A stretch of 64,000 nucleotides of DNA from Clostridia bacterium (GCA_017522795.1 JAFWXZ010000070.1:6202-70201); one strand, 5' to 3'. Positions 2,029-64,000 are shown, counted from the first letter of the stretch. Program-made: numbers and translations. The notes: generated from the letters alone by a model not told the origin.

Positions 2029-2087
2029 TTTTTATGCATTTTTTGTGTTTTTTAAGGCTCCAAAATCGGTATAAAAACAGTCGGAAA

Positions 2088-3730: not shown

Positions 3731-3734
3731 AAAA

Positions 3735-5553: not shown

Positions 5554-5616
5554 TTTGTGTTTTCCTTTCAAAAAAGCGACTGTTAAAAACAATCGCTTTT
5601 TGCTTTTTTGTAATCT

Positions 5617-6612: not shown

Positions 6613-6660
6613 TTGTTTATCCTTTCAAGATATAACATCTTCTTTTAATTTCTTACAAAA

Positions 6661-6689
6661 ATTATACATTGTATAGGAGATTTTGTCAA
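6661..6689 (-). promoter_or_regulatory. Sigma-A type promoter for the trpS-maf-nth-toprim operon
   Basis: On the minus strand: TTGACA, 17-nt spacer, TATAAT preceded by TG. It sits about 45 nt upstream of the trpS ATG. Confidence 0.7.
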
Positions 6690-6809
6690 GAACAAAATTG
6701 GTTTTTAGTGAAAGTTTGGAATTTTGGGTGTAAAAAGCGGCTTTTTATATACAAAAAACCTATTAAATATTAATAAAATTAAAAATTTTAAAAAAATTGC
6801 AAAAAACAT

Positions 6810-6838
6810 TTGCATTTTTCTATTTTGTATGCTATAAT
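6810..6838 (+). promoter_or_regulatory. Sigma-A type promoter for the 6944 lipoprotein gene
   Basis: TTGCAT (6810-6815), 17-nt spacer, extended -10 TGcTATAAT (6830-6838). Confidence 0.65.
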
Positions 6839-6943
6839 AGTTCAGCGGATTGTACGATAGGGTACTTTCCCATTATTTTTTGATCAATTTAATCGCGCTT
6901 TGTGGCGCGGAATTTGAAATATATTTATACAAGGATGAAAGAC

Positions 6944-7741: not shown

Positions 7742-7972
7742 GTTCTTGATAAGACCGAGGGCGATAAGGTTATCACCAAGAAGTCCTTTGACGTTGAGAT
7801 CAACGGCCAGACCTACACCTACTCCAACCTTAAGATTCTCTGGAAGGTTGAGAACGAAGGTCAGGCTATCGCAGAGTTCAAGCACACTCCTTATGTTGAC
7901 AAGGCTGAGAAGCCCGCAAAGAAGGAGACCGCTCCCTCTTCTCTTTACAATTCCGCATCCAAGGTAGACCTT

Positions 7973-46503: not shown

Positions 46504-46702
46504 ATATATAAACTCCATACCCATAATTCCAATATTAATTATGTATAAGATGTCTGAAAACTAACACTTCGTGCAAAAAAAACATTTTTTTGTGCTAAAT
46601 AATAGAAAAATTATCAAAAATATGTTATTATTATTTTAGATAATTATACATTTTTTACAATTTGTGAAATTACGACAAATTTTTGAAAGGGATTTTGATA
46701 AA

Positions 46703-49105: not shown

Positions 49106-49116
49106 GGTAGATTTAT

Positions 49117-49827
49117 ATGATTCATATTGCAGTTGTAGATGATGAGTCAAGCTACGTAACTCAAATTCAACAATATCTTAAGCAATACGAAGCAGAGAGC
49201 GGAGAGTTCATAAAAACCTCCGTCTTTTACGACGGTGATAGCATCGTTCATAAATATCGCTCTCAGTTTGACATTATTTTAATGGACGTAGAGATGAAAT
49301 TTATGGACGGTATGAGTGCCGCAGAGGAAATAAGAAAAATAGATTCTGAGGTAGTGATAATCTTTATTACCAACACTCCCCAATATGCTATTAGAGGCTA
49401 TGCGGTGGAGGCGCTTGATTATCTTTTGAAACCGCTGTCCTATTTTGCATTTTCTCAATGCCTTGGAAGAGCTATCAGCCGCATGAAAAACCGAATATCA
49501 AAGGCTGTTACCGTCAATATCAAGGGTGGCACGGCAAGGCTTGACGTGGCGGATATATATTACGTAGAGAGTCGCGGTCACAATATGATATATCACACCA
49601 CATCCGGAGAGTATGAGGCATCCTCTACTATGAAGGAAACCGAGGACACCCTTGGTGATATGGGTTTTTTCCGAGCGAGTAAATGGTATCTTATCAATCT
49701 TGCTCACGTTGACGGCTTCAAAGATGGCTATGCAAAGCTGCCGGGTGCCGAGCTCGCCGTTTCAAGAGCAAAGAAAAAGGAGTTTATGGAGGCGCTTACC
49801 GCTTATTGGGGAGGAGTGATCAAATAA
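49117..49827 (+). CDS. LytTR/AlgR family response regulator
   Basis: Receiver domain (IAVVDDE...ILMDVEM) plus a C-terminal LytTR DNA-binding domain (IYYVESRGHNMIYHT...FFRASKWYLINLAHV). Confidence 0.9.
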   Translation: MIHIAVVDDESSYVTQIQQYLKQYEAESGEFIKTSVFYDGDSIVHKYRSQFDIILMDVEMKFMDGMSAAEEIRKIDSEVVIIFITNTPQYAIRGYAVEALDYLLKPLSYFAFSQCLGRAISRMKNRISKAVTVNIKGGTARLDVADIYYVESRGHNMIYHTTSGEYEASSTMKETEDTLGDMGFFRASKWYLINLAHVDGFKDGYAKLPGAELAVSRAKKKEFMEALTAYWGGVIK

Positions 49828-51140
49828 TGATAGGGCACGCAGTACCGGATATTCCAAGATATTATACTGCTCTTGCAGAATGGCTTTCCTGCGGACTTTT
49901 CGTCATCCTGCTTGGACCGAAGCTCAGCAAGCCTAAGCTTGCGATCGTAGGGGTTATTTATCTCGCTGCCCTCACTATGTTTATGGAGCTTACCGCCACT
50001 ATAACTCTCTGGCTTTGGATACCCTGTATGGTAGCCGCGTTTCTTTCAATGGCTGTATTTATATGGTTCGCCAACAAAATATCATTTTATGAAAGCGTAT
50101 TCTATGCAGTAATGGCATTTTCCATAGCGGAATGTATAGCTTCGCTGGAATGGCAGATAGTAAACTCTATTTACACGGACATCAACCAAATGCCTTGGTA
50201 CATAGAGATATTTGCTCTGACAATAGTTTACGGCATCGTTCTGTTTTCTCTGTGGAAGCTGCTAAGCACAAGAATAAATAAGGAAAGACGTCTTAGTATA
50301 GAAAAAAGAGATTGGTTTATTTCTCTGTTTATTTGTGTTATAGTATTCGGCTTCAGCAACTTGAGCTTTATAACCGTATCATCCTCTGTATCGGGACAAT
50401 ATTTCAAGGAAATAGCATACACCAGAACGCTTGTGGATATAGCGGGAGTGGCTATGCTTTACGCCCACTTTCTTACCTGTAGAAACAATATGGTAAACCG
50501 TGAGCTTAATGCGGTGCAGAATGCTCTGAAAAATCAGTACGTTCAGTACAAGCAGTCCAGAGAAAGCATTGATATTATCAATATGAAATATCACGATCTA
50601 AAGCATCAGATCAATATGCTCAGAAGCCTTAACGACAACGAGCAACGCAGCGCCTTTCTTGACAGTATGGAGGCGGATATCCGCGCATACGAGCTGCAAA
50701 ACAAAACCGGCAACAGCGTTCTTGATACTTTAATTATAGGTAAAAGCATGTATTGCTCAAAGCACGGTATCACGATGACTGTGGTTGCAGACGGAAAGCT
50801 GCTTGATTTTATGGACTCTATGGACATCTGCAGTATATTTGGAAACGCATTGGATAACGCAATAGAATCGGTTATGAAAACCAATGAGAAGGAAAAGCGT
50901 CTTATACACCTCAGCGTGTCGCAGGTAAAGTCCTTCGTTATGATACGTATTGAAAATTATTATGAGGGAGATCTAAAAATTGACGACGGAAACTTCATTA
51001 CTACAAAAAATGATAAGCGTTTTCACGGCTATGGTATCAAGAGTATAAAATACACGGTTGACAGATATGACGGCGTTGTAAATATCAATGCGGAAAATCA
51101 TTGGTTTGAGCTTAAAATTCTTATTCCTTACAATAACTAA
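49827..51140 (+). CDS. Agr-type (HPK10) sensor histidine kinase, GHKL ATPase with a polytopic N-terminal sensor
   Basis: 6-7 TM helices. H-box KYHDLKHQINML, N-box FGNALDNAIES, G-box HGYGIKSIK. TAATG overlap with the regulator gene. Confidence 0.88.
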   Translation: MIGHAVPDIPRYYTALAEWLSCGLFVILLGPKLSKPKLAIVGVIYLAALTMFMELTATITLWLWIPCMVAAFLSMAVFIWFANKISFYESVFYAVMAFSIAECIASLEWQIVNSIYTDINQMPWYIEIFALTIVYGIVLFSLWKLLSTRINKERRLSIEKRDWFISLFICVIVFGFSNLSFITVSSSVSGQYFKEIAYTRTLVDIAGVAMLYAHFLTCRNNMVNRELNAVQNALKNQYVQYKQSRESIDIINMKYHDLKHQINMLRSLNDNEQRSAFLDSMEADIRAYELQNKTGNSVLDTLIIGKSMYCSKHGITMTVVADGKLLDFMDSMDICSIFGNALDNAIESVMKTNEKEKRLIHLSVSQVKSFVMIRIENYYEGDLKIDDGNFITTKNDKRFHGYGIKSIKYTVDRYDGVVNINAENHWFELKILIPYNN

Positions 51141-51167
51141 ACTTTATATTTTTTATTGATTTTTTGG

Positions 51168-51210
51168 GGCGATCTTGCTTTTTGCGGTAAGATCGCCTTT
51201 GTTTATTTTT
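51168..51210 (+). terminator. Rho-independent terminator after the kinase gene
   Basis: 9-bp stem GGCGATCTT / AAGATCGCC followed by a T-rich tract. Confidence 0.7.
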
Positions 51211-51244
51211 AACAAAATGACCGTCTTAAAAATTGGCTCTTTTG

Positions 51245-51292
51245 GACAAATTAATTACCGTTTATGCAAATAAGATGCGATTCGTGCAAATT
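51245..51292 (+). promoter_or_regulatory. Three direct repeats RCAAAT(T/A) with an exact 20-bp period; candidate response-regulator binding sites
   Basis: CAAAT at 51247, 51267 and 51287 (gACAAATT, tGCAAATA, tGCAAATT). They abut TTGACG at 51291 and lie about 110 bp upstream of the ATG at 51401. Confidence 0.4.
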
Positions 51293-51400
51293 GACGTTTT
51301 CCCTACCTTTTTTATGATATTATAAAATAAATCAATGACGAAATTGATATTTACAGGTTTTGAAGTAAACAAAAATATTACATATTTAGGGAGCTGTTCT

Positions 51401-51982
51401 ATGGAAAAAATCAAAGATTTATGGAATAAATTTGCGCAAAGCCATCCCAAGCTTTCGCAATGGGTAAGAGAAGGCGGGCTTTTCGTTATCGTAAGTAACG
51501 TAATCACCGTTTTTAAGTATTTGCTCCTCACATTTTTGCCCGCGGCGTTTGCCTTTATGGGCAGTCAGGATTTCGGATTTCCCGGTATTGACATTACTCT
51601 CTTCGGCATTGAGTTCAAGTGGTATATAATCGGATACGGTGCAGATCAGGGCGGCGCGGCATACTTCACCGCATATATGATAGCTATGGTTATCGGTGAG
51701 GTTATAAACTTCTTTATCCAGCGCAAGTATGTGTTCCGTTCCAACGGTAATATTGTCCGTCAGGGTGCCTGGTATTTCCTTGCCTTCTGCGTAGTCACCT
51801 GCGTGGTTAATTCCATTAACTGCATCTGGGCGGCCGTGGCAGGTCACTTCGTTGATCCTTGGCTTTATAACATCGGTACAACCGTTCTTAACGGCGGTGT
51901 TTCTATGGTAGTTTTCTTTGTTGTTAATAAAATAGTTTTTGAAAGCAAAAAGGAGGAGGAAAAAGAAAAGTGCGAGGAATAA
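51401..51982 (+). CDS. GtrA-like family membrane protein
   Basis: 4-TM protein with the FIQRKYVFRS motif typical of GtrA-like proteins. RBS AGGGAG upstream of the ATG at 51401. Confidence 0.7.
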   Translation: MEKIKDLWNKFAQSHPKLSQWVREGGLFVIVSNVITVFKYLLLTFLPAAFAFMGSQDFGFPGIDITLFGIEFKWYIIGYGADQGGAAYFTAYMIAMVIGEVINFFIQRKYVFRSNGNIVRQGAWYFLAFCVVTCVVNSINCIWAAVAGHFVDPWLYNIGTTVLNGGVSMVVFFVVNKIVFESKKEEEKEKCEE

Positions 51983-52926
51983 CAAAAATATCCTTTGTTA
52001 TAGTACTTTTTTGTCTGATGCTTTCCTGCACGTTGCTTACGGGATGTGAGACTATAAATACACTCAAAGAAAAGTTTGAGGAGATGAGTCAGAATAACGG
52101 TTCTTCGGTAGACGATGACAACCTGTCAGACGGAGATCAAAACGGTGATACGGATGGCGATGATATTCATATCAATGGCAGCTGTACACACAGTCTCAAA
52201 AAGCTTGATTGGGTAGCCCCCACCTGCATCGCTGAAGGTAAGCGCGGCGCCTTCCAATGCAAGCTCTGCGGCAAAATCTTTGAATATTTTGCCGAAAAGG
52301 ATGGGCTTGTAGAGGTTAAGGAGCAGAGCAGTATTCCGAAGAAGGATCATACCGTAAGCAATAAATACGGCATACGTCTTAAATCGGGAGTCAGTAAGGC
52401 AACGAGCTTTTCCGACTATGAAATCGTCACGGTGTGCAATACCTGCGGCACAGGATTTGCGGTCGGGGAGAGCGATCTTAGACCCTTTACTCCATCTACT
52501 AAGGTTCTGTATGACGACGTCACCCCTGTAAGCTTTACGCGTGACACGGTTGACGGTTTAGTTTCAACCACTTATATCTTTCCTTCATCTACCAAGGTCG
52601 GTATTCACAATTGGGTATATCACAACAATGATAGCGGAAAGCTTGACGCAAACACAAAGGTTCCGTTCTCGGCAAATACCGATAGGTATATTCTGATGAT
52701 GGTAAAAAATAACTCGGGCGAGAAAGTCACCTTTAAATACGGAGCGGAATACTATTCCACCTATTGCTGGTCTGAGCCCGTCACCGTTGAAGGCGGAGAG
52801 TATCAGGCGTTTGTTCTGAAGCTTAACTTTAGCGGCTCGGATTACGCCTGCTATCACACCATACAGCTTCTTGACTCCATATCCAATGACGTCAGTCTGA
52901 CGTTCAGCGGCTTTTACGTAAATTAA
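51970..52926 (+). CDS. Lipoprotein A: His-Cys3 module(s) plus shared beta-sandwich domain
   Basis: GTG start after AGGAGGAGG. Lipobox LLTGC. Module CTHSLKKLDWVAPTCIAEGKRGAFQCKLCGKIF. C-terminal domain with PFSANTDRY...VTFKYGAEYY...LTFSGFYV, paralogous to 55226 and 53930. Confidence 0.75.
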   Translation: MRGITKISFVIVLFCLMLSCTLLTGCETINTLKEKFEEMSQNNGSSVDDDNLSDGDQNGDTDGDDIHINGSCTHSLKKLDWVAPTCIAEGKRGAFQCKLCGKIFEYFAEKDGLVEVKEQSSIPKKDHTVSNKYGIRLKSGVSKATSFSDYEIVTVCNTCGTGFAVGESDLRPFTPSTKVLYDDVTPVSFTRDTVDGLVSTTYIFPSSTKVGIHNWVYHNNDSGKLDANTKVPFSANTDRYILMMVKNNSGEKVTFKYGAEYYSTYCWSEPVTVEGGEYQAFVLKLNFSGSDYACYHTIQLLDSISNDVSLTFSGFYVN

Positions 52927-52939
52927 GGAGGTAATAGCG

Positions 52940-53842
52940 GTGAAAAAAATACTCGTAAAAGCAATTGCCTTAATTACATTGCTTACCTGCCTTACCTCTC
53001 TTCTCGGAGCGACCGCCGTTTCTAATAAAACCAATGATGGAGATAACAGCGTAAAGCTCAATGCATCATATGAAATAATGAGCTTCAACATCCGTACCGA
53101 CGTGGACGGAGGACAAAGAGCCTGGTCCTATCGGGGAGAGTATCTGATGGATTACATAAGAGAGCATGGCGCGGACGTGGTTGCTCTCCAGGAGGTAAAG
53201 CGCTCTCAGTTTTCTTCTATAAAGGCATCTCTCTCCGATGTGTATCAAATGATATATTTTGAGAGAGATACAGCGGCGGATCCCGAGGGACTTGCTATCC
53301 TGTATTCATATGAATTCGAGCTTGTTAAAGGGGATGTCTTCTGGCTCAGCGAAACTCCCGATGTGATGTCTAAGGGCTGGGACGCCGATTATCACAGAAT
53401 ATGCGTTCACGCTCTGCTCCGCAGCTGCTACGGCAACTATCTTGACGTATACAATACCCATCTTGAATGGGCGGGCGAGAGGGCGAGAAACGAAGGACTC
53501 AGGCTTATCGTTGACAGGGCGTCTGAAAGCCAATATCCATCAATCATATGCGGAGACTTCAATGCAACCGAGGATGAGGATACCTACGATATTATCGGAA
53601 GCAGATTTAACGACACCGCAAAGCTTGCTCCGGTAAGCGACAGCGGATGGACTGCCCACGATTGGGGACTTTTTGATCCCGAATGGTCAAAGCCTATCGA
53701 TTTTATTTTTACAAGTAAGAATATTAAGGTCGATAAGTTTGATATTTTACAGGACGTTATCTCCGATGGCGTATATTACTCCGATCACTACGCCGTGACT
53801 GCTAAGCTGAATTATGATTACGTTCTTAAATATGTAGATTAA
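52940..53842 (+). CDS. Secreted endonuclease/exonuclease/phosphatase (EEP) family protein
   Basis: Signal peptide. EEP motifs VVALQEV, GDFNATEDE and SDHYAV. Confidence 0.85.
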   Translation: MKKILVKAIALITLLTCLTSLLGATAVSNKTNDGDNSVKLNASYEIMSFNIRTDVDGGQRAWSYRGEYLMDYIREHGADVVALQEVKRSQFSSIKASLSDVYQMIYFERDTAADPEGLAILYSYEFELVKGDVFWLSETPDVMSKGWDADYHRICVHALLRSCYGNYLDVYNTHLEWAGERARNEGLRLIVDRASESQYPSIICGDFNATEDEDTYDIIGSRFNDTAKLAPVSDSGWTAHDWGLFDPEWSKPIDFIFTSKNIKVDKFDILQDVISDGVYYSDHYAVTAKLNYDYVLKYVD

Positions 53843-53929
53843 TCTGTTTAACCTTACCCTCTTATGAGGGTGTTAAAATAAAAAAATCAATTTAATATAG
53901 CAGGAAAAACCTGCAAGAAGGAGGATGGA

Positions 53930-55213
53930 ATGAACAAAACGAAAAGAATTTTCGCTGTGACCGCTATGCTTATCGTGCTTATTGCATGCGCTATGCTGGC
54001 GGGATGCTCACCCGATTCCGGTGACACCGGGTTTTCTCACGTTCACACTCTGACCAGAGTCGCGCCCAAGGCAGCTACCTGTCTTGAGGACGGAAACAGA
54101 GAGTACTACATTTGCAGCGGATGCAACAAGACATTCGGCGATGCCGAGGGCAACGCTCCCATCACAAGTGAAAAATACGTTATTCCCGCAAAGGAGCATA
54201 ACGTAGCAATGCACAGTGAGAAAAAGGCGACTTGCTTTTCCAATGGAATCAAGGCATATTACGAATGCAGAAACTGTGGCACACTCTTCAGAGATGCTGA
54301 CGGTATGTTTGAGATAAGCGCTCCCGCTTCTATTCCCGCGACATCTCATTCGCTTACCAAGGTGGAGGGAAAGGCAGCTGTAGGATTTACGTCCGGTTGG
54401 CAGGAGCATTATGCCTGCGATAACTGTGACAAGCTCTATAAGGATGCCCTTGGAACTATAGAAACTACCTTTGATGAGATCAAGATCGTTCCCGTGCTTA
54501 CTGATTTTGAGTACAAGATAGCATTCACTCCCGCGGCAAATATTGATAGCGGCTCAAATTACATATCTGCATCCTACGTTGAGGTCAACGGACTTCCCGC
54601 TACGGAATTCACCCTCAAGGCAGGCACTCCCGCAGATACCGAGGCTTACGCGTGGATCCACCAGACTGTATCTCAGACTATGCCCCAGGGAATAAATCTC
54701 AGAATTCCCACCTTCAGCGGTAAGGAAAAGAAGCTGTCTCTCACAGTTACCAATAGCGGTTCCGAGGATATATCCTTCCGCTTCTACGCTGAAAACTACG
54801 GAGATAAGGGCGGCGTTAACGTTACTGTTGGCGCAGGAGAAACCAAGACCGTAGAGTTCACCATCAATCCCGGATCATCCACCGGATGTAATCTTCCTAT
54901 CAAGATTCTGAGCAGTGTAAATCAGGAGACCAAGCTTACAATGCAGGGCTTCTTCTACTGCGAGGGAGAGGTTGACGGCATTTCTCTGTACAAGGATGCG
55001 GAAAAGAAGACCTTTAAGGTTGGCGACAAATTTAGCACCGACGGACTTGTAGTTAAGGCTAAGGGCTCAAGCTATGACGAGGTCGTTATTGCAAATTATA
55101 TGACGGATATCGAGGAGGGCTACGTATTCACCGCAGAGGACGTCGGTACAAAGACCGTCACCGTTGCGTACGGCGAATACACTACCACCTACGAAATCAC
55201 TATTGAATCCTAA
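53930..55213 (+). CDS. Lipoprotein B: three His-Cys3 modules plus shared beta-sandwich plus Ig-like domain
   Basis: Lipobox LAGC. Modules HVHTLTRVAPKAATCLEDGNREYYICSGCNKTF and EHNVAMHSEKKATCFSNGIKAYYECRNCGTLF, plus a degenerate third. ISFRFYAENYGDKGGVNVTVGAGE core. Terminal Ig-like domain (KTVTVAYGEYTTTYEITI). Confidence 0.8.
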   Translation: MNKTKRIFAVTAMLIVLIACAMLAGCSPDSGDTGFSHVHTLTRVAPKAATCLEDGNREYYICSGCNKTFGDAEGNAPITSEKYVIPAKEHNVAMHSEKKATCFSNGIKAYYECRNCGTLFRDADGMFEISAPASIPATSHSLTKVEGKAAVGFTSGWQEHYACDNCDKLYKDALGTIETTFDEIKIVPVLTDFEYKIAFTPAANIDSGSNYISASYVEVNGLPATEFTLKAGTPADTEAYAWIHQTVSQTMPQGINLRIPTFSGKEKKLSLTVTNSGSEDISFRFYAENYGDKGGVNVTVGAGETKTVEFTINPGSSTGCNLPIKILSSVNQETKLTMQGFFYCEGEVDGISLYKDAEKKTFKVGDKFSTDGLVVKAKGSSYDEVVIANYMTDIEEGYVFTAEDVGTKTVTVAYGEYTTTYEITIES

Positions 55214-55225
55214 GGAGTGAAGATT

Positions 55226-57028
55226 ATGAGTAAAATTATTAAGAAAATTATAGCATCTTCGCTTTTAGCCGCAACCCTACTGATAGGAATCGGCGCGCTC
55301 AGTAGCTGTAACGTTGATTGGGATTACTGCCAGCATAAGCTGGAGGAGATACCAAAAAGTGAAGCAAGCTGTATGAAGGTCGGCAAGAAGACCGCCTATC
55401 AGTGCGTAAAATGCGGAAAGCTCTTTGCCTACGGCTATCTCAACGGCAAAGACGGTACAAAGGGCATTTATGAGATCAGCAGTCAGGAAATGCTTGACTA
55501 TTCTAACCACAAGATCGGAGATCTTTACGGTGATCTCAAGGCAGATATGACAACCTTTGATGCATCCAGCCTTGAGGACTTCTCTGTTTGGTCGCACTGC
55601 TCCGAGGAGGGCTGCGGCGAGGCGTTTGAGGTAGAATTACAGAATCTTATTCCATTTGCTCCCTGTGACAACACCAGCGGAAACGCAGATTACGTTGTAG
55701 TAGGCGAGGAAACGGATGCTACGAGATTTGAGATTCCCGCAAATACCCAGTCGGGCAAGTGTATCACAATATATACCGGTGGTAGCAAAATGAATACCGC
55801 CACAAACAAGATCCCCTTCTCCGCAAATACCGACCGTCACGTTATCCTCTTCTTCCACAATGACGGAAATCAGGACGTTAACGTCAGATACGGTACCGAA
55901 TTCTACGGCGAGAGAGTAGGCGTTGACGTGACAGTTCCCGCAAACGGCTACGCTACTGCTTATCTTAATATTAATATGACTCAGTCCAACAGCGACTGCT
56001 ATCACGAGCTGTATATAAATAGCGACATTAAGGAGAGCTTCGGACTTACAATTTCCGGCTTCTATTACAACGAGGCGAAGCTTCAGAGCGTTAAGATCGG
56101 AGAGTATCCCAAGGTCGAGTATGCTATCGGTGAGGTATTCAGCACCGAGGGACTTGAGGTGGTTGCAAAGTTCGGAGATATTGAGCGCAAGCTTGATGCG
56201 GATGATTACACCCTCGTTCTTAACAACAATAAGCCCATTACCGAGCCTCTCACAGAAGAGGATGACACGGTTTACGTAATCTACAAGAACAAGCAGACCA
56301 GCTTTACCATCAAGGTTCAGAGATATGAGCAGACAGTAAATCTCGTTGCCGCTACCTTTGCAGACGGCACCGCATCTGCGGTTCTTGATAGAAATTCTAT
56401 CATTCCTGCGGATATCGTTGCTACCAACGGTAAGACCATCGAGTACTTCATTGACCAGTACGGCGCGAAGTATGTTCCCGGCGAGGGCAGAGTTCCCGCG
56501 TATAACGCAACTCTTTCTCCCGTATATAGCGGAGTAAGCTTCAGCGATAACTACGCTCTCGGTGCAGACGTAAGTGTAAGCAGCACCTCGCACGGTGGAT
56601 CTAAGGGATCTCTCGTTGACGGTGTTAATTCTGTCAATTCCGATGCGGACGGAAGATGGTCCTCTAAGTCGAACTATGAAACTGCTACTCCCGACGAGGA
56701 AAACAGAGAGTGGGTAATGGTAGACCTTGGCGAATCGAAGTCTATCTGCCAGGTAGTTCTTTATCCCAGAGTATACGGCGGTTACTTCCCCGAGACCTAC
56801 GAGATTCTTGTTTCTGAGGACGGCGAAAAATGGAAGAGTGTAGTATCTGTTGAGTACGACGAGCTGGCATCTAAGGGTTCAGCTCTCGGAAGATGGAATG
56901 GCTTTGAAAGCGTGAACGCGCGCTACGTAAAGGTTGTTGCCATCAAGATGACCGATGACGGCGGCGGAGCAGGCTATATCTTCCAGCTTTCCGAAATAGA
57001 AATTTATGGCGAAACTTCGGGAAATTAA
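55226..57028 (+). CDS. Lipoprotein C: His-Cys3 module(s) plus shared beta-sandwich plus Ig-like domain plus F5/8 type C (discoidin) domain
   Basis: ATG 8 nt after AAGGAG. Lipobox LSSC. Module CQHKLEEIPKSEASCMKVGKKTAYQCVKCGKLF. PFSANTDRHVILFF...VNVRYGTEFYG...LTISGFYY. C-terminal discoidin-like REWVMVDLGESKSICQVVLYPR. Confidence 0.8.
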   Translation: MSKIIKKIIASSLLAATLLIGIGALSSCNVDWDYCQHKLEEIPKSEASCMKVGKKTAYQCVKCGKLFAYGYLNGKDGTKGIYEISSQEMLDYSNHKIGDLYGDLKADMTTFDASSLEDFSVWSHCSEEGCGEAFEVELQNLIPFAPCDNTSGNADYVVVGEETDATRFEIPANTQSGKCITIYTGGSKMNTATNKIPFSANTDRHVILFFHNDGNQDVNVRYGTEFYGERVGVDVTVPANGYATAYLNINMTQSNSDCYHELYINSDIKESFGLTISGFYYNEAKLQSVKIGEYPKVEYAIGEVFSTEGLEVVAKFGDIERKLDADDYTLVLNNNKPITEPLTEEDDTVYVIYKNKQTSFTIKVQRYEQTVNLVAATFADGTASAVLDRNSIIPADIVATNGKTIEYFIDQYGAKYVPGEGRVPAYNATLSPVYSGVSFSDNYALGADVSVSSTSHGGSKGSLVDGVNSVNSDADGRWSSKSNYETATPDEENREWVMVDLGESKSICQVVLYPRVYGGYFPETYEILVSEDGEKWKSVVSVEYDELASKGSALGRWNGFESVNARYVKVVAIKMTDDGGGAGYIFQLSEIEIYGETSGN

Positions 57029-57041
57029 CAGGAGGTAAGAT

Positions 57042-57443
57042 ATGTTCAGATTAAGCTATAAAACATTTATTCTTGTCCCTGCATCCATACTTTGTATGAT
57101 CGTACCCTTCGTGTACAAGGCAGGCTTTGACAACACACAGTATTTCACTCAGGAGGCATATACGCTTCCCTTTATCCTGTGTTCAATCGCTTTGGTTATC
57201 TCTATATTCAACGGAAGATACGGCTCACTTGCAATGTTCCTTTCGGCATTTGCGTGCCTGCTTTCCTTTGTAAACGCATCCTATCTCTATCTTTCCAGCG
57301 TATTTTTCAGCGGTATTCCGGACACATTAGGCGCTATGCTTGAGCAGATTGGATTTAACTGGTCGTTCTGTGCACTTTCTCTTCTCGGCGCAATGCTCGT
57401 CGGCATAGTTTCTATGTTTCTTCCCGACGGTAGCAGTATTTAA
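57042..57443 (+). CDS. Small 4-TM membrane protein
   Basis: RBS AGGAGG. Four hydrophobic helices. Separated by 13 nt from lipoprotein C and by 12 nt from the GH3 gene. Confidence 0.6.
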   Translation: MFRLSYKTFILVPASILCMIVPFVYKAGFDNTQYFTQEAYTLPFILCSIALVISIFNGRYGSLAMFLSAFACLLSFVNASYLYLSSVFFSGIPDTLGAMLEQIGFNWSFCALSLLGAMLVGIVSMFLPDGSSI

Positions 57444-57455
57444 GGAGGCGACATA

Positions 57456-60400
57456 ATGAAAGTTGTATTATCATTTATTTCTAAATTACTACTCGTTATT
57501 TTCGTAATACTTTACGGTGTAGTAAACGTTGGCGGTCAGATCGCTGCTGCCAATGCAAGCGTAATTTCCAAGTTCCTCGGCCAGGACGGATTTAACATGG
57601 TCAAGGACGAGACCCTTGGTGCAGATGAGGAGCTTGACACCGAGTACTTCAAGTCCGAATACTCAAGCGTAAGCGACCTGAAGGCTAACGGTGAGAGGCT
57701 TACTCAGCTCGTTATGGAGGAAGGCGCGGTTCTTCTCAAGAACGACAACAGTGCGCTTCCCCTTTCCTCAACCGATAAGATCAGTCTCTTCTCCGCCTCC
57801 TCGGTAAGCCCCATTTTCTCAGGCTACCGCGAGCACAACGATAAAAGCAGCGGTACAACCAACCTTCTTGACGGCTTTACCGCAGCAGGTCTTGATGTAA
57901 ACCGTGAGCTTTACAACTGGTACAAGTCCAGCAACTACGGACGTCAGTACATCAACGGCCCTGGCCTATATGCTATCGTTAACATCAACGACGCTCCTTG
58001 GAGCGCAATTCCCGACAGCGCAAAGTTTGCTGAAGGCTACAATACCGCTGTGTTTGTTCTCTCCCGTATAGGCGGTGAGGGTACCGATAACCAGATGTTT
58101 GATAACGGCGAAAGCAACAATAGCAGAGGCTATGAGTGGGATGGCTACAATGGCAACTATCTCGCTCTCAGTGAGGATGAAAGATCCGTTCTTCAGGGGC
58201 TTAAGGCTGCCAAGGACGCAGGTCAGTACGACAAGATCATCGTTCTCTGCAACTTCACCAACCAGGTAATGCTCGATTTTGTTGACGATCCCGCATACGG
58301 CGTTGACGCAGTTCTTTACAGCGGTGGCTTGGGCTCCAAGGGCTCGGTAGCTATTGCCAACATCCTTAAGGGTACTGTTAACCCCTCGGGTAAGCTTTCC
58401 GACACCTTCTGGAAGAATCATTATCTCAACCCCGTACACGCAAACTACGGTCAGTATAAGCTTGATACCTCTAAGATCGGTGACTACTACGCATACTCCT
58501 CCTACATTTATTTTGATACCAACGGCAAGGAGGTTTCCACCAGTGCAGGCAACCAGAACGGATACGTGGTATATCAGGAGGGTATTTACGTAGGCTACAG
58601 ATACACCGAAACCAGATACGAGGATAAGGTTATGGGCACGGGTAATGCAGGTAACTTCAATTACTCTGCCGCTGTTTCCTATCCCTTCGGCTACGGTCTT
58701 TCCTACACCAGCTTTGAGTATTCGGATTACAGCGTAATCTACAATGCAGAGACCGATTCTTACGATATCAGCGTTAAGGTTAAAAACATTGGCAGCGTTG
58801 CAGGTAAGGAGTCTGTTCAGATCTTCCTGCAGAAGCCCTATACCGAGTATGACAAGCAGATGGGAGTTGAGGCTGCGGCAGTTGAGCTTGTAGCTTACGA
58901 CAAGACCGATCTTCTTGAGCCCGGCGCAGAGCAGACGCTCAATATGTCGGTTGAAAGACGCGATTTCGCAAAGTACGATTCCTACGGTCACAAGACCTAT
59001 ATTCTCGAGGAAGGCGAATACTACCTGGCGGCAGGTAAGAACGCGCACGATGCCGTAAACAACATTCTTGCGGCAAAGGGCTTCTCTACCGCTGACGGTA
59101 TGGACGAAGCAGGTAATGCAAATCTTACCGCTCTCGTTGGATTTGCCGATTCCGAAAACGACAAGAGAATCACATCCGACGATCTTCTTCTCTATTCCAC
59201 CGCTAAGGTTAACGTTTACTCCGATAAGGATGCGGACGGAAACCTTGTTGGCAAGCTTATCACCAATCAGTTTGACAACGCAGATCCCAAGATCTTTGAC
59301 GGTGGTGTAAACTACGGTGAGAATGCTCTTGGCGGCGCCTGGACCTACGTTACCAGAAACAACTGGGCAGGCACCGTAAAATATGCTGTAGCTGTTGACG
59401 AGGCAACAGGCTACGTAAGCAGCTATGACAGACTTAACAACTTCGTAAGACTTGTAAAGACGGATGCTATCAAGGCAGGACTTGACTTTGATATTCTTGA
59501 TGAGGCTGCAAGCGACGTTGCATACCCCACCTTTGGATCTACCCAAACCGCATGGCAGCTTATCGACCTCAGGGTTGATGAGAACGGCAATCCCATCGCT
59601 TACAACGATCCCCGTTGGGATGAGCTTCTTGACCAGCTCTCCTGGGACGATTACGTAGCTATTCTCGCGGGCGGTCTTTACAACACTCCCGGTCTTTCCT
59701 CTATTTCCGCGCCCACTTCTAACACCTACGACTCAGACCTCGGTGTTATTTCCAAGTACAATATGTACCCCTCGGGCCTTGCTACAAAGCTTAACGATCC
59801 TGACAAAAACACATCTCCCGCGACCTATGTTGACAACGGCATCGTTGCTGCAACCCGCAATCTTGACCTCATTTACGAATACGGTATTCAGTGGGGCGAG
59901 GACTGTCTGTGGGCAGGCTTTAACGGTCTCTATGGTGCAGGCGCCAACATTCACAGAAGCCCCTATCTCGGCAGAAGCTACGGATATATTTCCGAGGACG
60001 GCTTCCTCTCCGGTATGACTCTCGCAAAGATGAATCTCGGTATGGAGACCAAGGGCGCGTATATGCTTGCAAAGCACTGCGTTCTTAATGAACAGGAGAC
60101 CAACCGCTGTGGCGCAGCGTCCTGGGCAAACGAGCAGTCCATCCGTGAGATATACGTAAAGGTATTTGAGGTAGCTATCGAGGAGGGCTCTCTTCAGGGT
60201 GTTATGACCTCTCTTAACCGTATCGGAACAACTCCTGCTCCTCACCACACCTTCCTTAACGAGGTTCTTCGTTATGAGTTTGGTATGACGGGCTACAACG
60301 TAACCGACTCCGGTATGCCTTATATGAACACCGCAAACTGCGTATGGGCAGGTAACGATCTTCCTATCAACGGCGTATCTCACACAGTTCCCGATATTCC

Positions 60401-60644
60401 CGAGACAGGCTACGGTCATCTTGCTCAGGCGGCAAGAGATTGCGTACACAACGTTCTCTACACCGTTGTAAACTCTAGCGCTATGAACGGCTTCTCATCC
60501 GATATGAGAGTAGTTCGATTCCAGCCCGAGTGGGAATACTTCCTCGGAGTAGCAACCGACATTATCAACGTTGCTATAATTCCCGTAGTAGTATTCTATA
60601 TCGCAATTGAAATATGGGTAGGCATTAGAAGAAGATTCTTCTGA
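57456..60644 (+). CDS. Glycoside hydrolase family 3 protein, domain-permuted, with N- and C-terminal TM anchors
   Basis: N-terminal TM. GH3 alpha/beta-sandwich domain first (EEGAVLLKNDNSALPL ... FGYGLSYTSFEYSD). Next an FnIII-like domain. Then the barrel domain with the nucleophile region GMTGYNVTDSG. C-terminal TM (IIPVVVFYIAIEIWVGI). Confidence 0.82.
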   Translation: MKVVLSFISKLLLVIFVILYGVVNVGGQIAAANASVISKFLGQDGFNMVKDETLGADEELDTEYFKSEYSSVSDLKANGERLTQLVMEEGAVLLKNDNSALPLSSTDKISLFSASSVSPIFSGYREHNDKSSGTTNLLDGFTAAGLDVNRELYNWYKSSNYGRQYINGPGLYAIVNINDAPWSAIPDSAKFAEGYNTAVFVLSRIGGEGTDNQMFDNGESNNSRGYEWDGYNGNYLALSEDERSVLQGLKAAKDAGQYDKIIVLCNFTNQVMLDFVDDPAYGVDAVLYSGGLGSKGSVAIANILKGTVNPSGKLSDTFWKNHYLNPVHANYGQYKLDTSKIGDYYAYSSYIYFDTNGKEVSTSAGNQNGYVVYQEGIYVGYRYTETRYEDKVMGTGNAGNFNYSAAVSYPFGYGLSYTSFEYSDYSVIYNAETDSYDISVKVKNIGSVAGKESVQIFLQKPYTEYDKQMGVEAAAVELVAYDKTDLLEPGAEQTLNMSVERRDFAKYDSYGHKTYILEEGEYYLAAGKNAHDAVNNILAAKGFSTADGMDEAGNANLTALVGFADSENDKRITSDDLLLYSTAKVNVYSDKDADGNLVGKLITNQFDNADPKIFDGGVNYGENALGGAWTYVTRNNWAGTVKYAVAVDEATGYVSSYDRLNNFVRLVKTDAIKAGLDFDILDEAASDVAYPTFGSTQTAWQLIDLRVDENGNPIAYNDPRWDELLDQLSWDDYVAILAGGLYNTPGLSSISAPTSNTYDSDLGVISKYNMYPSGLATKLNDPDKNTSPATYVDNGIVAATRNLDLIYEYGIQWGEDCLWAGFNGLYGAGANIHRSPYLGRSYGYISEDGFLSGMTLAKMNLGMETKGAYMLAKHCVLNEQETNRCGAASWANEQSIREIYVKVFEVAIEEGSLQGVMTSLNRIGTTPAPHHTFLNEVLRYEFGMTGYNVTDSGMPYMNTANCVWAGNDLPINGVSHTVPDIPETGYGHLAQAARDCVHNVLYTVVNSSAMNGFSSDMRVVRFQPEWEYFLGVATDIINVAIIPVVVFYIAIEIWVGIRRRFF

Positions 60645-60806
60645 TAAATAAAAAATGCCGATAAGCTCGGCTCAAATAATACGACAAGCAACTCCGCGCG
60701 GTATATTCCCCCTCGCCGAGGGGGAACGACCGCAACACCTTTTAAAACCTAACGGCACGTGCCGCAAAAATAAAACAAAAAAACAAAAGGATAAAAGGAG
60801 AAAAAT

Positions 60807-63800
60807 ATGGAAAAGTTCAAGAAAATCTTGAGAACTGTCCTCATTCTGTCTGTTATCGTCGGCGTAGTATGTATTGCTACGTCCTGCGACGTAATAGGCG
60901 GAATCTTCGGTGGTCATACTCATAATCTGACCATCGTTGAAAAGATCGACGCAACCTGTACCGAGGCAGGTCAGGAAGCATACTTCAAATGTGACGGATG
61001 CGATCAGCTCTTCGCAGATATCGAAGGCAAGAACGCTATTGAAGCTCCTGTGGCTATCGCTCCTCTCGGTCATAAGATCGTAGGCGTAGCGGGCACAGAG
61101 CCCACCTGCACCGAACCCGGTATCGCAGACTGCTTCAAGTGCTCCAGATGTGAAGCTGTTTTTGCGGATGCAAAGGGCGAGAATAAGATCGAGGCTCCCG
61201 TAACCAGCGCCCCCCTCGGCCACTCTCTCGTTAAGACCTCCGCAAAGGCTGCTACCTGTACTGCTGACGGCAACAACGAATACTACACCTGCTCCGTATG
61301 TAAAAAGGTTTACAAGGATGCAGATGCAAAGACCGAAACCACTGCTGCGGCTGAGATCATCAAGGCAAGCGGTCACGCAGAGGTAAAGCACGATGCAAAG
61401 GCTCCCACCTGTACCGAAAAGGGTTGGGACGCATACGTGACCTGTAAAAACTGCGATTACACCACCTATGCAGAAAAGGCAGCTCTCGGTCACGACGAGA
61501 TCAGCCACGATGCAAAGGCTCCCACCTGTACCGAAAAGGGTTGGGACGCATACGTGACCTGTAAAAATTGCGATTACACCACCTATGCAGAAAAGGCAGC
61601 TCTCGGTCACGACGAGATCAGCCACGATGCAAAGGCTCCCACTTGTACCGAAATCGGTTGGGATGCATACGTGACCTGTAAAAACTGCGATTACACCACC
61701 TATGCCGAAAAGGCAGCTCTCGGCCACAAGCTTACTAAGACCGAGGCAAAGGACGCTACCTGCCTTGAGGACGGTAACGTAGCATACTGGACCTGTTCCT
61801 CCGTCTGCAAGCAGATCTTCTCCGATGCAGAGGGCAATAACGTTATCACCAACACCATAATCCCCGCAAAGGGACACACCCTTTCCGAAACCCTTATCGT
61901 AGAGGGCGCAGTTAAGAATTACGAGCCCGGCTCAAGCTTCGATGCATCCAATCTTGTAGTAAAGCTTGATTGCAAGGATTGCGATTATACCAAGGAGGTT
62001 ACCGGCTATACTCTCAGCAAGACAGAGAACCTTCAGCCCTCTGATAACGCGGTAGTTGTTACATATGTAGAGGACGGTAAGACCTATACCGCTTCTATAG
62101 CTATTGTAGTAGTTCACGTACACGTTACCGGCGATCTTGTTCCCGCCGTTGCTCCCAACTGTACCGAAACAGGTACTCTTGCATACTATGAGTGCGAAAT
62201 TTGTAAGCATAAGTTTGCAGATAAGGACGCAACCGAGCTTTACGAGTCGGTTGTTGTTCCTGCTCTCGGTCACGACGAGATCAGCCACGAGGCAAAGGCT
62301 CCCAACTGTACCGACATTGGTTGGGACGCATATGTGACCTGCAAAAATTGCGATTACACTACCTACGTAGAAAAGGCAGCTCTCGGTCACTCCACCTCTA
62401 AGGTTGATGCAAAGGCTCCCACCTGTACAGAGGAAGGCTACGAGGCATATTACACCTGTAGCGGCTGTGATAAGCTCTTCTCTGACGCAGATGCTAAGAA
62501 TATTATCCCTGCTCCTATCGTTGTAGGCGCTCTCGGCCACGACGAGATCAGCCACGATGCAAAGGCTCCCACCTGTACAGACATTGGTTGGGACGCATAC
62601 GTGACCTGTAAAAACTGCGATTACACTACCTATGCCGAAAAGGCAGCTCTCGGTCACAATGCTACCAAGACCGAGGCTAAGGAATCCAGCTGTACCGAAG
62701 CAGGTAATAACGCATACTGGACCTGCTCTGTTTGCGGTAAGGTTTACTCCGACGAGGCTTGTACCGTTGAGACCTCGGTTGAGGCTGAGACTCTTCCCCT
62801 TGCAAAGCATGAAACCAATCTTCTCTCAGATGCAAACGGTCACTGGTACGATTGCGCTAACTGTGACTATGTAACCGATAAGGAAAACCACAGCGGCGTC
62901 GCTTATCCCGATGCAGCTCCCAAGTGTACAGTTTGTGACACCGAGTTCGGTAAGGCAAGCTGGGACGGCTGGGTTCTCTTCAGACCCGGTATCGTAGAGG
63001 TTGCAGGCGGCTCTGTTACCTCCGCATCTCATGTAACTGTTAACGGCATTATGGCAAGCCAGTACGTATTCGGCGCAGGCTCTGCAGGCTCCGACAGCAC
63101 TATCTGGACTATGTCCGATGCTTCTGATTACAACAACGGAATGTATCAGGTAAGAATTCCTACCGTTGGCGATAACGAGAGATATATTTACCTCTACGTT
63201 TCCAATGATGGCGACACCGACATCAGCTTCAGAATCTACTCTGAAAACTATGGCGACAAGGGCGGCGTTGACGTAACTCTTGCTGCTGGCGAGAGCGGCT
63301 GGTTCAAGTATTCGGTACACACCGGTACAACCATTGGTTCTAACGTAAACCTTAAGCTTCTCTCCGATCTTGCTTCTGAGACCACCGTTACTATCTATGG
63401 CTACTGGCATCTTGAGACAGAGGAGATAGCGAACCTTGATATTGCTAACAGAAGCGAAATCAAGCTTTCCTACCGTGCAGGCGAAAAGTTCAGCCTTCCC
63501 GAGCTTATTCTCGTCTCCAATATTTTCTCTAATAACGAGAACGACCTTCTTAACAATGGCGGTGCTGTAGAAAAGTATTATATTGCAAGCAACTTTACAG
63601 TTTCCGGCCTTGAGATCGGACAGACCCTTGAGGCAGGCAATTACACAGTAACCGTATCCTTTGGCGGTAAGAGCGTTGAGCTTCAGATTGTCGTAAGCTC
63701 CCATACTCACGCTCCCGAGCTTGTTGCAAAGAAGCCCGCAACCTGTACTGAGGACGGTTATGAGGCATATTACATCTGTAATGTAGACGGCTGCGGTCAG

Positions 63801-64000
63801 CTCTTCGCAGATGCAGAGGGTAATACTCCCATCTCTTCTATCACTACTCTTCCCGCAGGACATGTTGAAAGCGCTGCTATCCCGGGTCATAAGGCAATCT
63901 GCCCTAGATGCGGAGCAGAGAGCGGCGAGGTTCTTGATCCCGACGGATGGGTACATTTCGCACCCGGCGTTGTTTGGTCCGACTACTATGAGGGTATCTA
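60807..64000 (+). CDS. Giant lipoprotein D (over 1064 aa, 3' end outside the window): at least 15 His-Cys3 modules, two Ig-like domains, at least one shared beta-sandwich domain
   Basis: Not in the supplied track because it has no stop in the window. RBS AAAAGGAG 6 nt upstream of the ATG at 60807. Signal plus lipobox (ILSVIVGVVCIATSC). The frame is open for 1064 codons with host-typical codon usage. ISFRIYSENYGDKGGVDVTLAAGE is paralogous to lipoprotein B. Confidence 0.88.
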   Translation, partial: MEKFKKILRTVLILSVIVGVVCIATSCDVIGGIFGGHTHNLTIVEKIDATCTEAGQEAYFKCDGCDQLFADIEGKNAIEAPVAIAPLGHKIVGVAGTEPTCTEPGIADCFKCSRCEAVFADAKGENKIEAPVTSAPLGHSLVKTSAKAATCTADGNNEYYTCSVCKKVYKDADAKTETTAAAEIIKASGHAEVKHDAKAPTCTEKGWDAYVTCKNCDYTTYAEKAALGHDEISHDAKAPTCTEKGWDAYVTCKNCDYTTYAEKAALGHDEISHDAKAPTCTEIGWDAYVTCKNCDYTTYAEKAALGHKLTKTEAKDATCLEDGNVAYWTCSSVCKQIFSDAEGNNVITNTIIPAKGHTLSETLIVEGAVKNYEPGSSFDASNLVVKLDCKDCDYTKEVTGYTLSKTENLQPSDNAVVVTYVEDGKTYTASIAIVVVHVHVTGDLVPAVAPNCTETGTLAYYECEICKHKFADKDATELYESVVVPALGHDEISHEAKAPNCTDIGWDAYVTCKNCDYTTYVEKAALGHSTSKVDAKAPTCTEEGYEAYYTCSGCDKLFSDADAKNIIPAPIVVGALGHDEISHDAKAPTCTDIGWDAYVTCKNCDYTTYAEKAALGHNATKTEAKESSCTEAGNNAYWTCSVCGKVYSDEACTVETSVEAETLPLAKHETNLLSDANGHWYDCANCDYVTDKENHSGVAYPDAAPKCTVCDTEFGKASWDGWVLFRPGIVEVAGGSVTSASHVTVNGIMASQYVFGAGSAGSDSTIWTMSDASDYNNGMYQVRIPTVGDNERYIYLYVSNDGDTDISFRIYSENYGDKGGVDVTLAAGESGWFKYSVHTGTTIGSNVNLKLLSDLASETTVTIYGYWHLETEEIANLDIANRSEIKLSYRAGEKFSLPELILVSNIFSNNENDLLNNGGAVEKYYIASNFTVSGLEIGQTLEAGNYTVTVSFGGKSVELQIVVSSHTHAPELVAKKPATCTEDGYEAYYICNVDGCGQLFADAEGNTPISSITTLPAGHVESAAIPGHKAICPRCGAESGEVLDPDGWVHFAPGVVWSDYYEGI
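61389..61727 (+). repeat. Near-perfect 117-bp tandem repeat x 2.9 inside the lipoprotein D gene; dispersed copies at about 62271-62390 and 62538-62657
   Basis: Units start at 61389, 61506 and 61623. Each encodes HDAKAPTCTE(K/I)GWDAYVTCKNCDYTTYAEKAALGHDEIS. Only a few substitutions between units. Confidence 0.92.

Follow-up and report, generated by a model that had tools for sequence, protein, structure and literature searches.

A LytTR-linked cluster of His-Cys3-module lipoproteins, a doubly membrane-anchored permuted GH3 and a four-TM protein in Clostridia: a candidate system for capturing and trimming glycans at the cell surface

Four paralogous lipoproteins, a circularly permuted GH3 glycoside hydrolase and a small protein with four transmembrane (TM) segments are encoded together at the end of a 64,000-nucleotide stretch of DNA (GCA_017522795.1, JAFWXZ010000070.1:6202-70201), hereafter the window. 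It comes from a ruminant-gut metagenome-assembled genome (MAG) annotated as "Clostridia bacterium", in which the products are MBR3876379-85 at NCBI. On balance we favor the view that these genes, under LytTR control, make up a surface system of Gram-positive-type Clostridia that catches an extracellular glycan and cuts it back at the membrane. What the operon would present at the surface is a set of four lipoproteins, each with a His-Cys3 module and a predicted jelly-roll domain, a GH3 with a candidate catalytic pair and two anchors, and a conserved 4-TM protein. An earlier sequence-only reading of this DNA had proposed a surface apparatus that binds and trims a glycan. A carbohydrate-binding fold predicted for the shared domain, fusions of that domain to GH3 and EEP enzymes, and co-conservation of the genes all speak for that proposal, while the EEP phosphoesterase that it counted among the components turns out not to belong to the core.

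The operon and its parts are as follows, with membrane segments called by hydropathy and lipoboxes by inspection.

51291-51318, plus strand: promoter-like site TTGACG-16-TATGAT, from a promoter scan, preceding the first gene.
51401 (or 51335)-51982, plus strand: GtrA-family 4-TM protein, 193 aa; Pfam GtrA_DPMS_TM (PF04138), 32 bits against a cut-off of 26.1.
51970-52926, plus strand: lipoprotein A, 318 aa; lipobox LTGC, module at 52189-52269, truncated CxxC knuckle, shared domain at 52477-52923.
52940-53842, plus strand: EEP-family phosphoesterase, 300 aa; PF03372, E 1.5e-21; hydrophobic N-terminus, secreted or anchored.
53930-55213, plus strand: lipoprotein B, 427 aa; lipobox LAGC, modules at 54044-54124 and 54197-54277 plus a degenerate copy, shared domain at 54497-54964.
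54998-55201, plus strand: Big_3-like Ig domain of B; Pfam 19.3 bits against 21.2, below threshold.
55226 (or 55217)-57028, plus strand: lipoprotein C, 600 aa; lipobox LSSC, YCQH module at 55334-55414, CxxC knuckle, shared domain at 55637-56074.
56573-56956, plus strand: F5/8 type C (discoidin) domain of C, following an Ig-like linker; Pfam, E 7e-18.
57042-57443, plus strand: 4-TM protein of an unnamed family, 133 aa; four TM segments by hydropathy.
57456-60644, plus strand: circularly permuted GH3, 1062 aa; Pfam.
57462-57518 and 60570-60626, plus strand: N-terminal and C-terminal TM segments of the GH3; hydropathy.
57729-58598 (residues 92-381), 58809-59042 (452-529) and 59844-60314 (797-953), plus strand: GH3_C, Fn3-like and GH3_N barrel domains of the GH3; Pfam.
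60807 to beyond 64000, plus strand: lipoprotein D, first 1064 of 1614 aa; lipobox ATSC, CxxC knuckles.
60915-61808 and 62121-62735, plus strand: module arrays of D, with an Ig-like domain between them.
62961-63416, plus strand: shared domain of D, followed by an Ig-like domain, a module at 63702-63806 and a second shared domain from 63945.

The open reading frame map contains eight genes in one direction, running from 51401 to past 64000. Eight co-directional genes had been claimed before, and the map together with translation of the open-ended last gene bears this out; the 13-nt overlap at 51970-51982 and the gaps of 13, 12, 13 and 12 nt given for the tight junctions are exact, and the two remaining gaps measure 87 nt and 162 nt. 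A Shine-Dalgarno-like sequence precedes each of the eight genes, and because these sequences favor them we prefer the starts at 51401 (GtrA-like protein) and 55226 (C) over 51335 and 55217; the NCBI annotation of the same proteins uses 51401 and 55226 too. In an identical strain (locus L016) the genes 3' of D lie on the opposite strand. Since D is therefore last, the operon consists of these eight genes, and they stand behind one promoter-like site. No Rfam family scores at its gathering threshold anywhere in the 64-kb window (1-64000).

Lipobox cysteines follow hydrophobic N-termini in all of A to D, and most homologs have a lipobox-like pattern by a loose regular expression. The claim of four paralogous lipoproteins stands, on the lipoboxes and on the homology of a domain that they share. 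Full-length D, read from the identical strain, is 1614 aa long and contains three shared domains in three units of module, knuckle, domain and Ig. Ig-like domains had been assigned to B, C and D and a discoidin domain to C; the latter is secure by its Pfam score, and NCBI names C a "discoidin domain-containing protein", while the Big_3 match in B stays below threshold. Cys and His are conserved in the alignment of the C family. No lipoprotein matches SusD in Pfam, and B has a weak, sub-threshold SusE match (E 0.009).

The shared domain, about 150 residues long, is found in all four lipoproteins as the sequence-only reading had it: the landmarks that it quoted are present, and pairwise BLAST relates A to C at 1e-17, B to D at 3e-31, A to B at 2e-9 and A to D at 4e-5. 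A hidden Markov model (HMM) of the domain finds no further copies elsewhere in the window proteins. The domain has no Pfam or NCBIfam match, and a profile search of PDB sequences returned weak Ig-like matches alone. Word-indexed searches with domain profiles gave four matches and one match, so that an exhaustive HMM search was needed; run over 1.84 billion cluster representatives, it identified 73 proteins, of which 48 score E <=1e-10. The scan of the genome collection was done with the alignment of the C family. Most of the 73 are lipoproteins with N-terminal modules, and many carry two or three copies of the domain.

An AlphaFold model of B residues 190-345, built from a 40-sequence alignment, is confident and all-beta (pLDDT 91.6, pTM 0.87). 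In a Foldseek search of the PDB its top 11 matches are all carbohydrate-binding modules (CBMs), with E from 8e-6 to 7e-5 and leading TM-scores of 0.55-0.60; over all matches to CBM4, CBM11, CBM22, CBM6 and CBM16, E ranges from 8e-6 to 3e-4 and the TM-score from 0.43 to 0.60, at probability 1.0. Profile and Foldseek searches had been proposed for this domain, and their outcome is a CBM-like beta-jelly-roll without a named family in Pfam or NCBIfam. As modeled, the shared domain combines a known fold, of the CBM type, with sequences that form a new family. It resembles CBM4, CBM22, CBM11, CBM6 and CBM16 in its jelly roll and in being appended to glycoside hydrolases in some proteins, and differs from them in its 10-17% identity, in having no Pfam CBM match and in the tiny size of the family (73 among 1.84 billion). 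Judged by the modeled fold and by its context, the domain would bind glycan.

Several fusions join the domain to enzymes. In protein P0169 a TM hairpin and two shared domains come after a permuted GH3, in P0190 a shared domain is attached to a GH3 fragment, and in P0144 an EEP domain is set among three shared domains. P0169 (locus L008, 1852-6765) begins with an N-terminal TM segment and an ectodomain and has further TM segments at residues 955-973 and 1010-1028 before its two shared domains, a layout by which the chain would pass through the membrane three times and emerge again on the outside.

The second element common to the lipoproteins is a short module. Strict copies of H-x(11-13)-C-x10-C-x2-C, found by regular expression, number one in A, two in B (plus one degenerate), one in C and 11 in the part of D inside the window; allowing C-x2-3-C adds a copy at D residues 307-334, and full-length D has further copies. 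The module had been described as H-x9-11-C-x10-C-x2-C, in up to at least 15 copies. It is real, but the usual His-Cys spacing over 231 instances is x11, and the figure of 15 is reached solely if truncated CxxC knuckles are counted. In those 231 distinct instances, drawn from the window and from homologs, the positions are H(-12) at 89%, C0, G+4 at 94%, Y+8 at 71%, C+11 and C+14, where the three cysteines are fixed by the search pattern. A three-module query has 287 homologs, every named one of them "hypothetical", from Clostridia, Oscillospiraceae and Faecalibacterium, and some of the homologs carry dockerin or BspA-type leucine-rich repeat (LRR_5) domains.

No Pfam or NCBIfam model reaches threshold on the module in the window proteins or their homologs. 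We rejected zf-POGZ, zf-C2H2 and RYYR-CCHC as its family, as their matches lie below the gathering score and cover the CxxC knuckle alone, and likewise the C2H2 fingers and rubredoxins found by profile in the PDB, which cover the Y-x-C-x2-C knuckle alone. A profile of 39 single modules, by contrast, matches residues 852-889 of the IgA protease chain 9qa6_A over the whole module (HTHNLTLVAAKAATCTTAGNSAYYTCDGCDKWF) at E 4.7e-13, and it matches two more subdomains less strongly. Residues 852-889 of 9QA6 are subdomain I of the putative zinc-binding domain ZBD1 in the Thomasclavelia ramosa IgA protease (IgAse; UniProt Q9AES2). The statement that the module could not be assigned to any named family does not hold up, since the profile match makes it a homolog of the IgAse ZBD subdomains.

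ZBD1 and ZBD2 of IgAse were treated through AlphaFold3 models alone and not resolved experimentally (2025, PMC12237041). In those models each subdomain is a three-stranded antiparallel sheet of ~35-55 residues, the three subdomains of ZBD1 form an elongated rod of ~110 angstroms, and a putative structural zinc at the subdomain interfaces is held tetrahedrally by two His and two Cys or by three Cys and one His; the ZBDs are dispensable for catalysis (PMC12237041). Our AlphaFold model of D residues 176-308, covering three modules, has pLDDT 93 overall and ~98 per module, and DSSP assigns a strand pattern that is repeated in every module. Foldseek found no match for this three-module model in the PDB (best E 0.28), a miss that may reflect the analysis of the IgAse ZBDs as models alone. 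The odd number of cysteines together with the conserved His would favor a metal site over disulfides, and by analogy to the modeled IgAse rod we infer that the modules bind structural zinc and form stiff, elongated stalks.

The likeness to the IgAse ZBDs extends to modules of ~35-55 residues, the repeated strand pattern of the model, the predicted site of three Cys and one His, and a position between functional domains and the cell anchor. IgAse is a protease in which three plus two subdomains, with mainly two His and two Cys, lie toward the sortase-anchored C-terminus, whereas in the window proteins three Cys and one His dominate, arrays reach at least 12 copies, and the modules are N-terminal, straight after the lipobox. 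The module is thus real, widespread in Clostridia, recently noticed and without a family name. Three near-identical 117-bp tandem repeats (96% matches) at 61389-61727 encode consecutive 39-aa modules of D, and D differs in length between strains, from 1504 aa with fewer modules (L003) to 1614 aa (L016); together these observations suggest that recombination varies the length of the stalk. In the C family the module begins with an extra invariant Cys (YCQH; 55334-55345 in the window) only 0-9 residues after the lipobox Cys, which would place the first zinc module right at the membrane anchor.

The GH3 has its domains in permuted order. The TM helices previously noted at both of its ends are confirmed by hydropathy, and the anchors are kept in every ortholog examined. 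Its barrel aligns with the C-terminal half of the 5k6l and 5wug chains, and NCBIfam equivalogs all score far under their cut-offs (best 185 against 1300 bits). In an alignment to Thermotoga neapolitana Bgl3B (TnBgl3B, 2x40), D951 stands opposite D242 and E208 opposite E458, which we take to be the nucleophile and the acid/base of that enzyme, and the aligned residues are conserved. This alignment of the catalytic pair makes an active retaining exo-glycosidase likely. A beta-linked gluco- or xylo-oligosaccharide is our default guess for its substrate, going by the GH3 branch to which it belongs. Permuted GH3s have been described before in GlyA1 (5K6L, PMC5104943) and BrGH3A (PMC11233000). The window GH3 resembles these and 5WUG in the order of alpha/beta-sandwich, FnIII-like domain and TIM barrel and in the aligned Asp/Glu pair; it has in addition a TM segment at each end and an adjoining 4-TM gene, features for which the GlyA1 and BrGH3A papers were not checked, and some of its relatives, P0169 among them, add the hairpin and shared domains described above.

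The neighboring 4-TM protein has no Pfam or NCBIfam match. A six-member alignment of its family has 22 invariant columns, and in every locus found the gene lies between C and the GH3. A holin of the LrgA/CidA kind was considered, as LytTR systems regulate those, and set aside: no member of the six has Pfam support for it at E <=0.1.

Gene order in other genomes supports a joint role. A relative at 54-72% identity (L001, L002, L012 and L013) keeps the order A-EEP-B-C-4TM-GH3-D. In distant genomes, where C is 30-38% and the GH3 51-56% identical, the set is response regulator, kinase, a two-domain lipoprotein, C, 4-TM and GH3; this short core occurs in L004, L005 and L006 (the last differing in detail), and in L015 and L025 as judged by Pfam families of called genes. 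The order C-4TM-GH3 recurs in L004, L005, L006, L012, L015, L025 and L018-L022, and a metagenome scan with the 4-TM alignment as bait returned five short contigs, all with C-4TM-GH3. Divergent members of the domain family also lie beside permuted-type GH3 genes (L008-L010, L011, L023 and L024). A permuted-type GH3 gene is adjacent or fused in all ten informative domain-bearing loci, a count from which L014 is excluded because its contig holds the domain gene alone.

The sequence-only reading had named co-occurrence across related genomes as a check on its proposal. For the lipoproteins, the 4-TM protein and the permuted GH3 the genes are indeed co-conserved in distant genomes; for the EEP enzyme the expectation was not borne out, as EEP and A are confined to the window's lineage and its close relatives. 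The conserved core is a regulator, a domain lipoprotein, C, the 4-TM protein and the GH3, with EEP, A and GtrA as lineage-specific extras.

The regulator belongs to a two-component system just upstream, which lies outside the range (from 51335) considered earlier and is part of the system.

49117-49827, plus strand: LytTR-type response regulator, 236 aa; Pfam Response_reg 1.1e-16, LytTR 2.7e-16.
49806-51140, plus strand: membrane histidine kinase, 444 aa; Pfam HATPase_c_5 3.6e-32; C-terminal GHKL/HATPase_c_5 part, N-terminal half multi-TM.
51166-51199, plus strand: intrinsic-terminator-like hairpin with a 14-bp stem, 6 GC pairs and a T-rich tail, ending the unit of upstream GH3, response regulator and kinase.
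51257-51318, plus strand: imperfect direct repeats TTTATGCAAA (51261-51270) and TTCGTGCAAA (51281-51290) abutting the promoter-like site; putative LytTR box.

Orthologs of the response regulator, at 35-37% identity, adjoin the cluster in L004, L005, L006 and L024, LytTR regulators identified by Pfam do so in L015 and L025, and histidine-kinase orthologs likewise adjoin it in other loci; in all, seven loci (L004, L005, L006, L015, L024, L025 and L008-L010) have genes for both a LytTR regulator and a histidine kinase beside the cluster. Paired repeats ~21 bp apart are the usual geometry of a LytTR binding site. Upstream of the orthologous operon in L004, L005, L006 and L015 there are two direct repeats of 10-11 bp with 21-bp spacing, for example GCCATTTACGG-N10-ACCACTTATGG, followed by a conserved TTTTGTGGAAAT-like element. 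The window repeat ACCGTTTATG is identical to one of the L006 repeats, and a weaker second repeat lies 20 bp downstream of it, abutting the -35 element. It is a reasonable inference from these sites that the response regulator controls the operon directly.

In L012 the LytTR system is absent. There the gene for P0130 (10001-12049) lies 22 nt upstream of the A-EEP-B-C-4TM-GH3-D operon; P0130 and another protein, P0167, combine a cytoplasmic XRE-type helix-turn-helix, one TM helix and two extracellular shared domains.

A second GH3 gene at 46664-49105, with normal domain order and neither signal peptide nor TM segment in its product, ends 11 nt before the response-regulator gene and is apparently transcribed together with the two-component system. 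Its product could finish the breakdown of imported oligosaccharides. An 80%-identical copy, split by a frameshift, is found in L023 beside a GtrA gene.

The GtrA-like protein has four hydrophobic segments and is named "GtrA family protein" at NCBI. Its gene is not present in L004-L006, L012, L015 or L025; as most orthologous clusters do without it, we reject it as a core component and regard it as a lineage-specific accessory. In L023 a 92%-identical GtrA lies upstream of another cluster of shared-domain and GH3 genes, with a cytoplasmic-type GH3 gene in between.

The EEP enzyme had been credited with a signal peptide, and both the assignment and the hydrophobic N-terminus check out: PF03372 matches over profile positions 1-225 of 225 with 77.6 bits against a gathering score of 24.5. 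Its nearest PDB sequences are 3g6s and 3l1w, uncharacterized proteins from structural genomics, and then 3mpr/4c1r, the mannose-6-phosphatase BT3783 (E 2e-21). BT3783, the nearest of these with a characterized function, is a phosphatase of the yeast-mannan polysaccharide utilization locus of B. thetaiotaomicron and acts on phosphorylated sugars and glycans, including phosphorylated mannan/N-glycan (Cuskin et al. 2015, PMC4978465); this relative too speaks for the proposal of the sequence-only reading. The likeness to BT3783 (4C1R/3MPR) is that of an exported EEP-family enzyme encoded inside a glycan-degradation cluster; the difference is that the window's EEP gene is limited to its own lineage and close relatives. 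The EEP gene always comes after the orthologs of A. In L012 (12981-13880) and L013 (3548-4447), two independent contigs, gene calling splits EEP in two (101 + 197 aa), which suggests a frameshift or pseudogene and an enzyme that is dispensable.

Other genes near related clusters were also recorded. Upstream of the orthologous cluster in L012, at 1876-9189, lie a GH16, a 1033-aa Big_2 protein and a doubly TM-anchored permuted GH3 of 975 aa, neighbors that hint at a substrate of the beta-glucan type. In L023, which belongs to a close relative, positions 308-5821 beside the other shared-domain/GH3 cluster hold Pfam families Amidohydro_1, ROK, Aldose_epim, ABC_tran/OB_MalK and Glucosamine_iso; these look like genes of sugar or amino-sugar catabolism.

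Under the capture-and-trimming reading, the LytTR regulator would bind the direct repeats abutting the -35 element and switch the operon on. After lipidation, the tandem modules would form stiff stalks of ~35 angstroms per module with zinc at each junction, by analogy to IgAse. Their graded lengths (one module in A, one in C, three in B and at least 12 in D) would hold the outer domains through and beyond the wall, where the CBM-like, Ig and discoidin domains would bind the target glycan. In the window's lineage the EEP enzyme and its partner A may remove a phosphate or phosphodiester decoration. The GH3, which its two TM helices would keep flat on the membrane and which probably forms a complex with the 4-TM protein, would free monosaccharides from non-reducing ends close to the membrane, and transporters encoded elsewhere would import them. 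A bolder version, which we consider improbable, makes the cluster a hitherto unrecognized type of Gram-positive machine for processing glycans, with three undescribed families as its parts: the rare CBM-like jelly-roll domain, the 4-TM protein and the GH3 fixed to the membrane at both ends. In it the last two would associate within the membrane, hydrolyze the captured glycan and signal its turnover to the AgrC-like kinase, and the zinc-rod lipoproteins, graded from 1 to at least 12 modules, would be rulers that hand glycan from outside the wall down to the membrane.

Several points weigh against capture and trimming. No endo-acting enzyme is encoded in the window's operon, and no ABC, GPH, MFS or PTS gene lies in 46664-64000 or in the conserved core of L004-L006, L012, L015 and L025; the nearest MFS_2 gene is at 35942-37558 on the minus strand, with unrelated genes between it and the cluster. 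Zinc binding and rigidity of the modules are predictions from models. Glycan binding is argued from fold and context, and TM-scores of 0.55-0.60 at 10-17% identity establish no binding site. The kinase resembles peptide-sensing kinases of the AgrC type; an Agr-type peptide system was dropped from consideration, as no AgrB or AgrD candidate was seen beside it. The GtrA gene would fit the synthesis of an envelope glycopolymer better than nutrient harvesting. All the genomes compared are uncultured MAGs.

The last point but one leads to envelope maintenance, in which the cluster would remodel or recycle the cell's own surface glycopolymer, for example a glycosylated polymer resembling teichoic acid or a lipid-linked glycan: GtrA would supply an undecaprenyl-phosphate-linked sugar on the outer leaflet, EEP would cut phosphodiesters, the GH3 and 4-TM protein would act on a glycolipid and the lipoproteins would bind the polymer. 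That a GtrA-family gene heads the operon and overlaps A by 13 nt, that a close GtrA recurs beside the L023 cluster, that two anchors hold the GH3 to the membrane, that EEP enzymes can be phosphodiesterases and that the cluster lacks a transporter all agree with this. Yet most orthologous clusters (L004-L006, L015, L025) have neither GtrA nor EEP, Pfam scans find no glycosyltransferase, polymerase or teichoic-acid gene nearby, the neighbors in relatives are GH16, extra GH3s and sugar-catabolism genes, and multi-copy CBM-like domains, a discoidin domain and long stalks suit an outward reach, so that we judge this account unlikely. We have similarly little confidence that the cluster is chiefly a sensor, in which a complex of GH3, 4-TM protein and AgrC-like kinase relays the occupancy or turnover of substrate, the lipoproteins concentrate the ligand and feeding is secondary. 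Such a role would suit the strict co-conservation of the regulator-kinase pair, 4-TM and GH3, the missing transporter, and a kinase whose multi-TM N-terminal half (four segments above the hydropathy threshold) has no obvious extracellular sensing domain. In L012, moreover, the two-component system is swapped for a one-component regulator with the shared domain as its outer part, which ties ligand sensing tightly to the operon. Yet in that locus the 4-TM protein and the GH3 persist although the kinase is gone, which gives the pair a role of its own; contact between GH3, 4-TM and kinase has no direct support; and the large investment in binding proteins (D alone has 1614 aa) along with the conserved catalytic residues suggests real processing.

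It is very unlikely, in our estimation, that the lipoproteins are adhesins that bind mucin, host glycoproteins or other microbes and that the enzyme genes are loosely related neighbors. The module does occur in the T. ramosa IgAse and in LRR_5 and dockerin proteins, and discoidin and Ig-like domains are common in adhesins; the module, though, is a generic stalk element and not a specific part, distant genomes keep the order with GH3 and 4-TM genes, and the specific part, the shared domain, which in some proteins is joined to GH3 or EEP in one chain, is confined to GH3-linked loci (10/10).

Capture and trimming invites comparison with polysaccharide utilization loci. The Gram-positive kind (gpPUL) is defined by a polysaccharide-degrading enzyme, a regulator and a transport system in one locus, and the regulators named for it include LytTR response regulators (Sheridan et al. 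2016, PMC5320581). Here the regulator is present as a LytTR response regulator with its kinase, or as an XRE-type regulator in L012, and the candidate for the degrading enzyme is a GH3, a family that is typically exo-acting, with a GH16 near the cluster in L012; because there is no transporter in the cluster, the published definition does not cover it. Like a gpPUL, the cluster combines a co-regulated glycoside hydrolase with putative glycan-binding proteins at the surface and with a regulator of its own. The binding proteins, however, are free-standing lipoproteins on long zinc-module stalks instead of transporter solute-binding proteins or CBMs on secreted enzymes, and the hydrolase, itself a membrane protein, has a 4-TM partner. 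The sequence-only reading had drawn an analogy to Sus systems. Its binding-and-trimming part is a functional likeness at best; the analogy otherwise fails, as there is no transporter and Pfam finds neither a SusC-like TonB-dependent transporter nor a SusD-like lipoprotein, the adjacent pair typical of Bacteroidota Sus-like loci, in the eight operon genes or the eight genes upstream.

Clusters that combine a glycoside hydrolase, binding proteins at the surface and a regulator are already a known kind, and permuted GH3s and the IgAse ZBD have been published. Four things appear to be undescribed here: the rare CBM-like domain, the family of the 4-TM protein, the pairing of such a protein with a doubly anchored GH3, and the architecture as a whole. 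If our reading is right, it would add a narrowly distributed candidate family of carbohydrate-binding domains and would give a genomic setting to a widespread Clostridial zinc module that has been modeled so far in one IgA protease. It would also describe a membrane-integral GH3 with a 4-TM partner, unlike Sus systems and the ABC-transporter-centered loci of Gram-positive bacteria. A possible engineering use of the stalk modules would be as rigid spacers in surface display. For the uncultured Clostridia of rumen and gut that encode the cluster, a defined ligand would reveal what these organisms eat.

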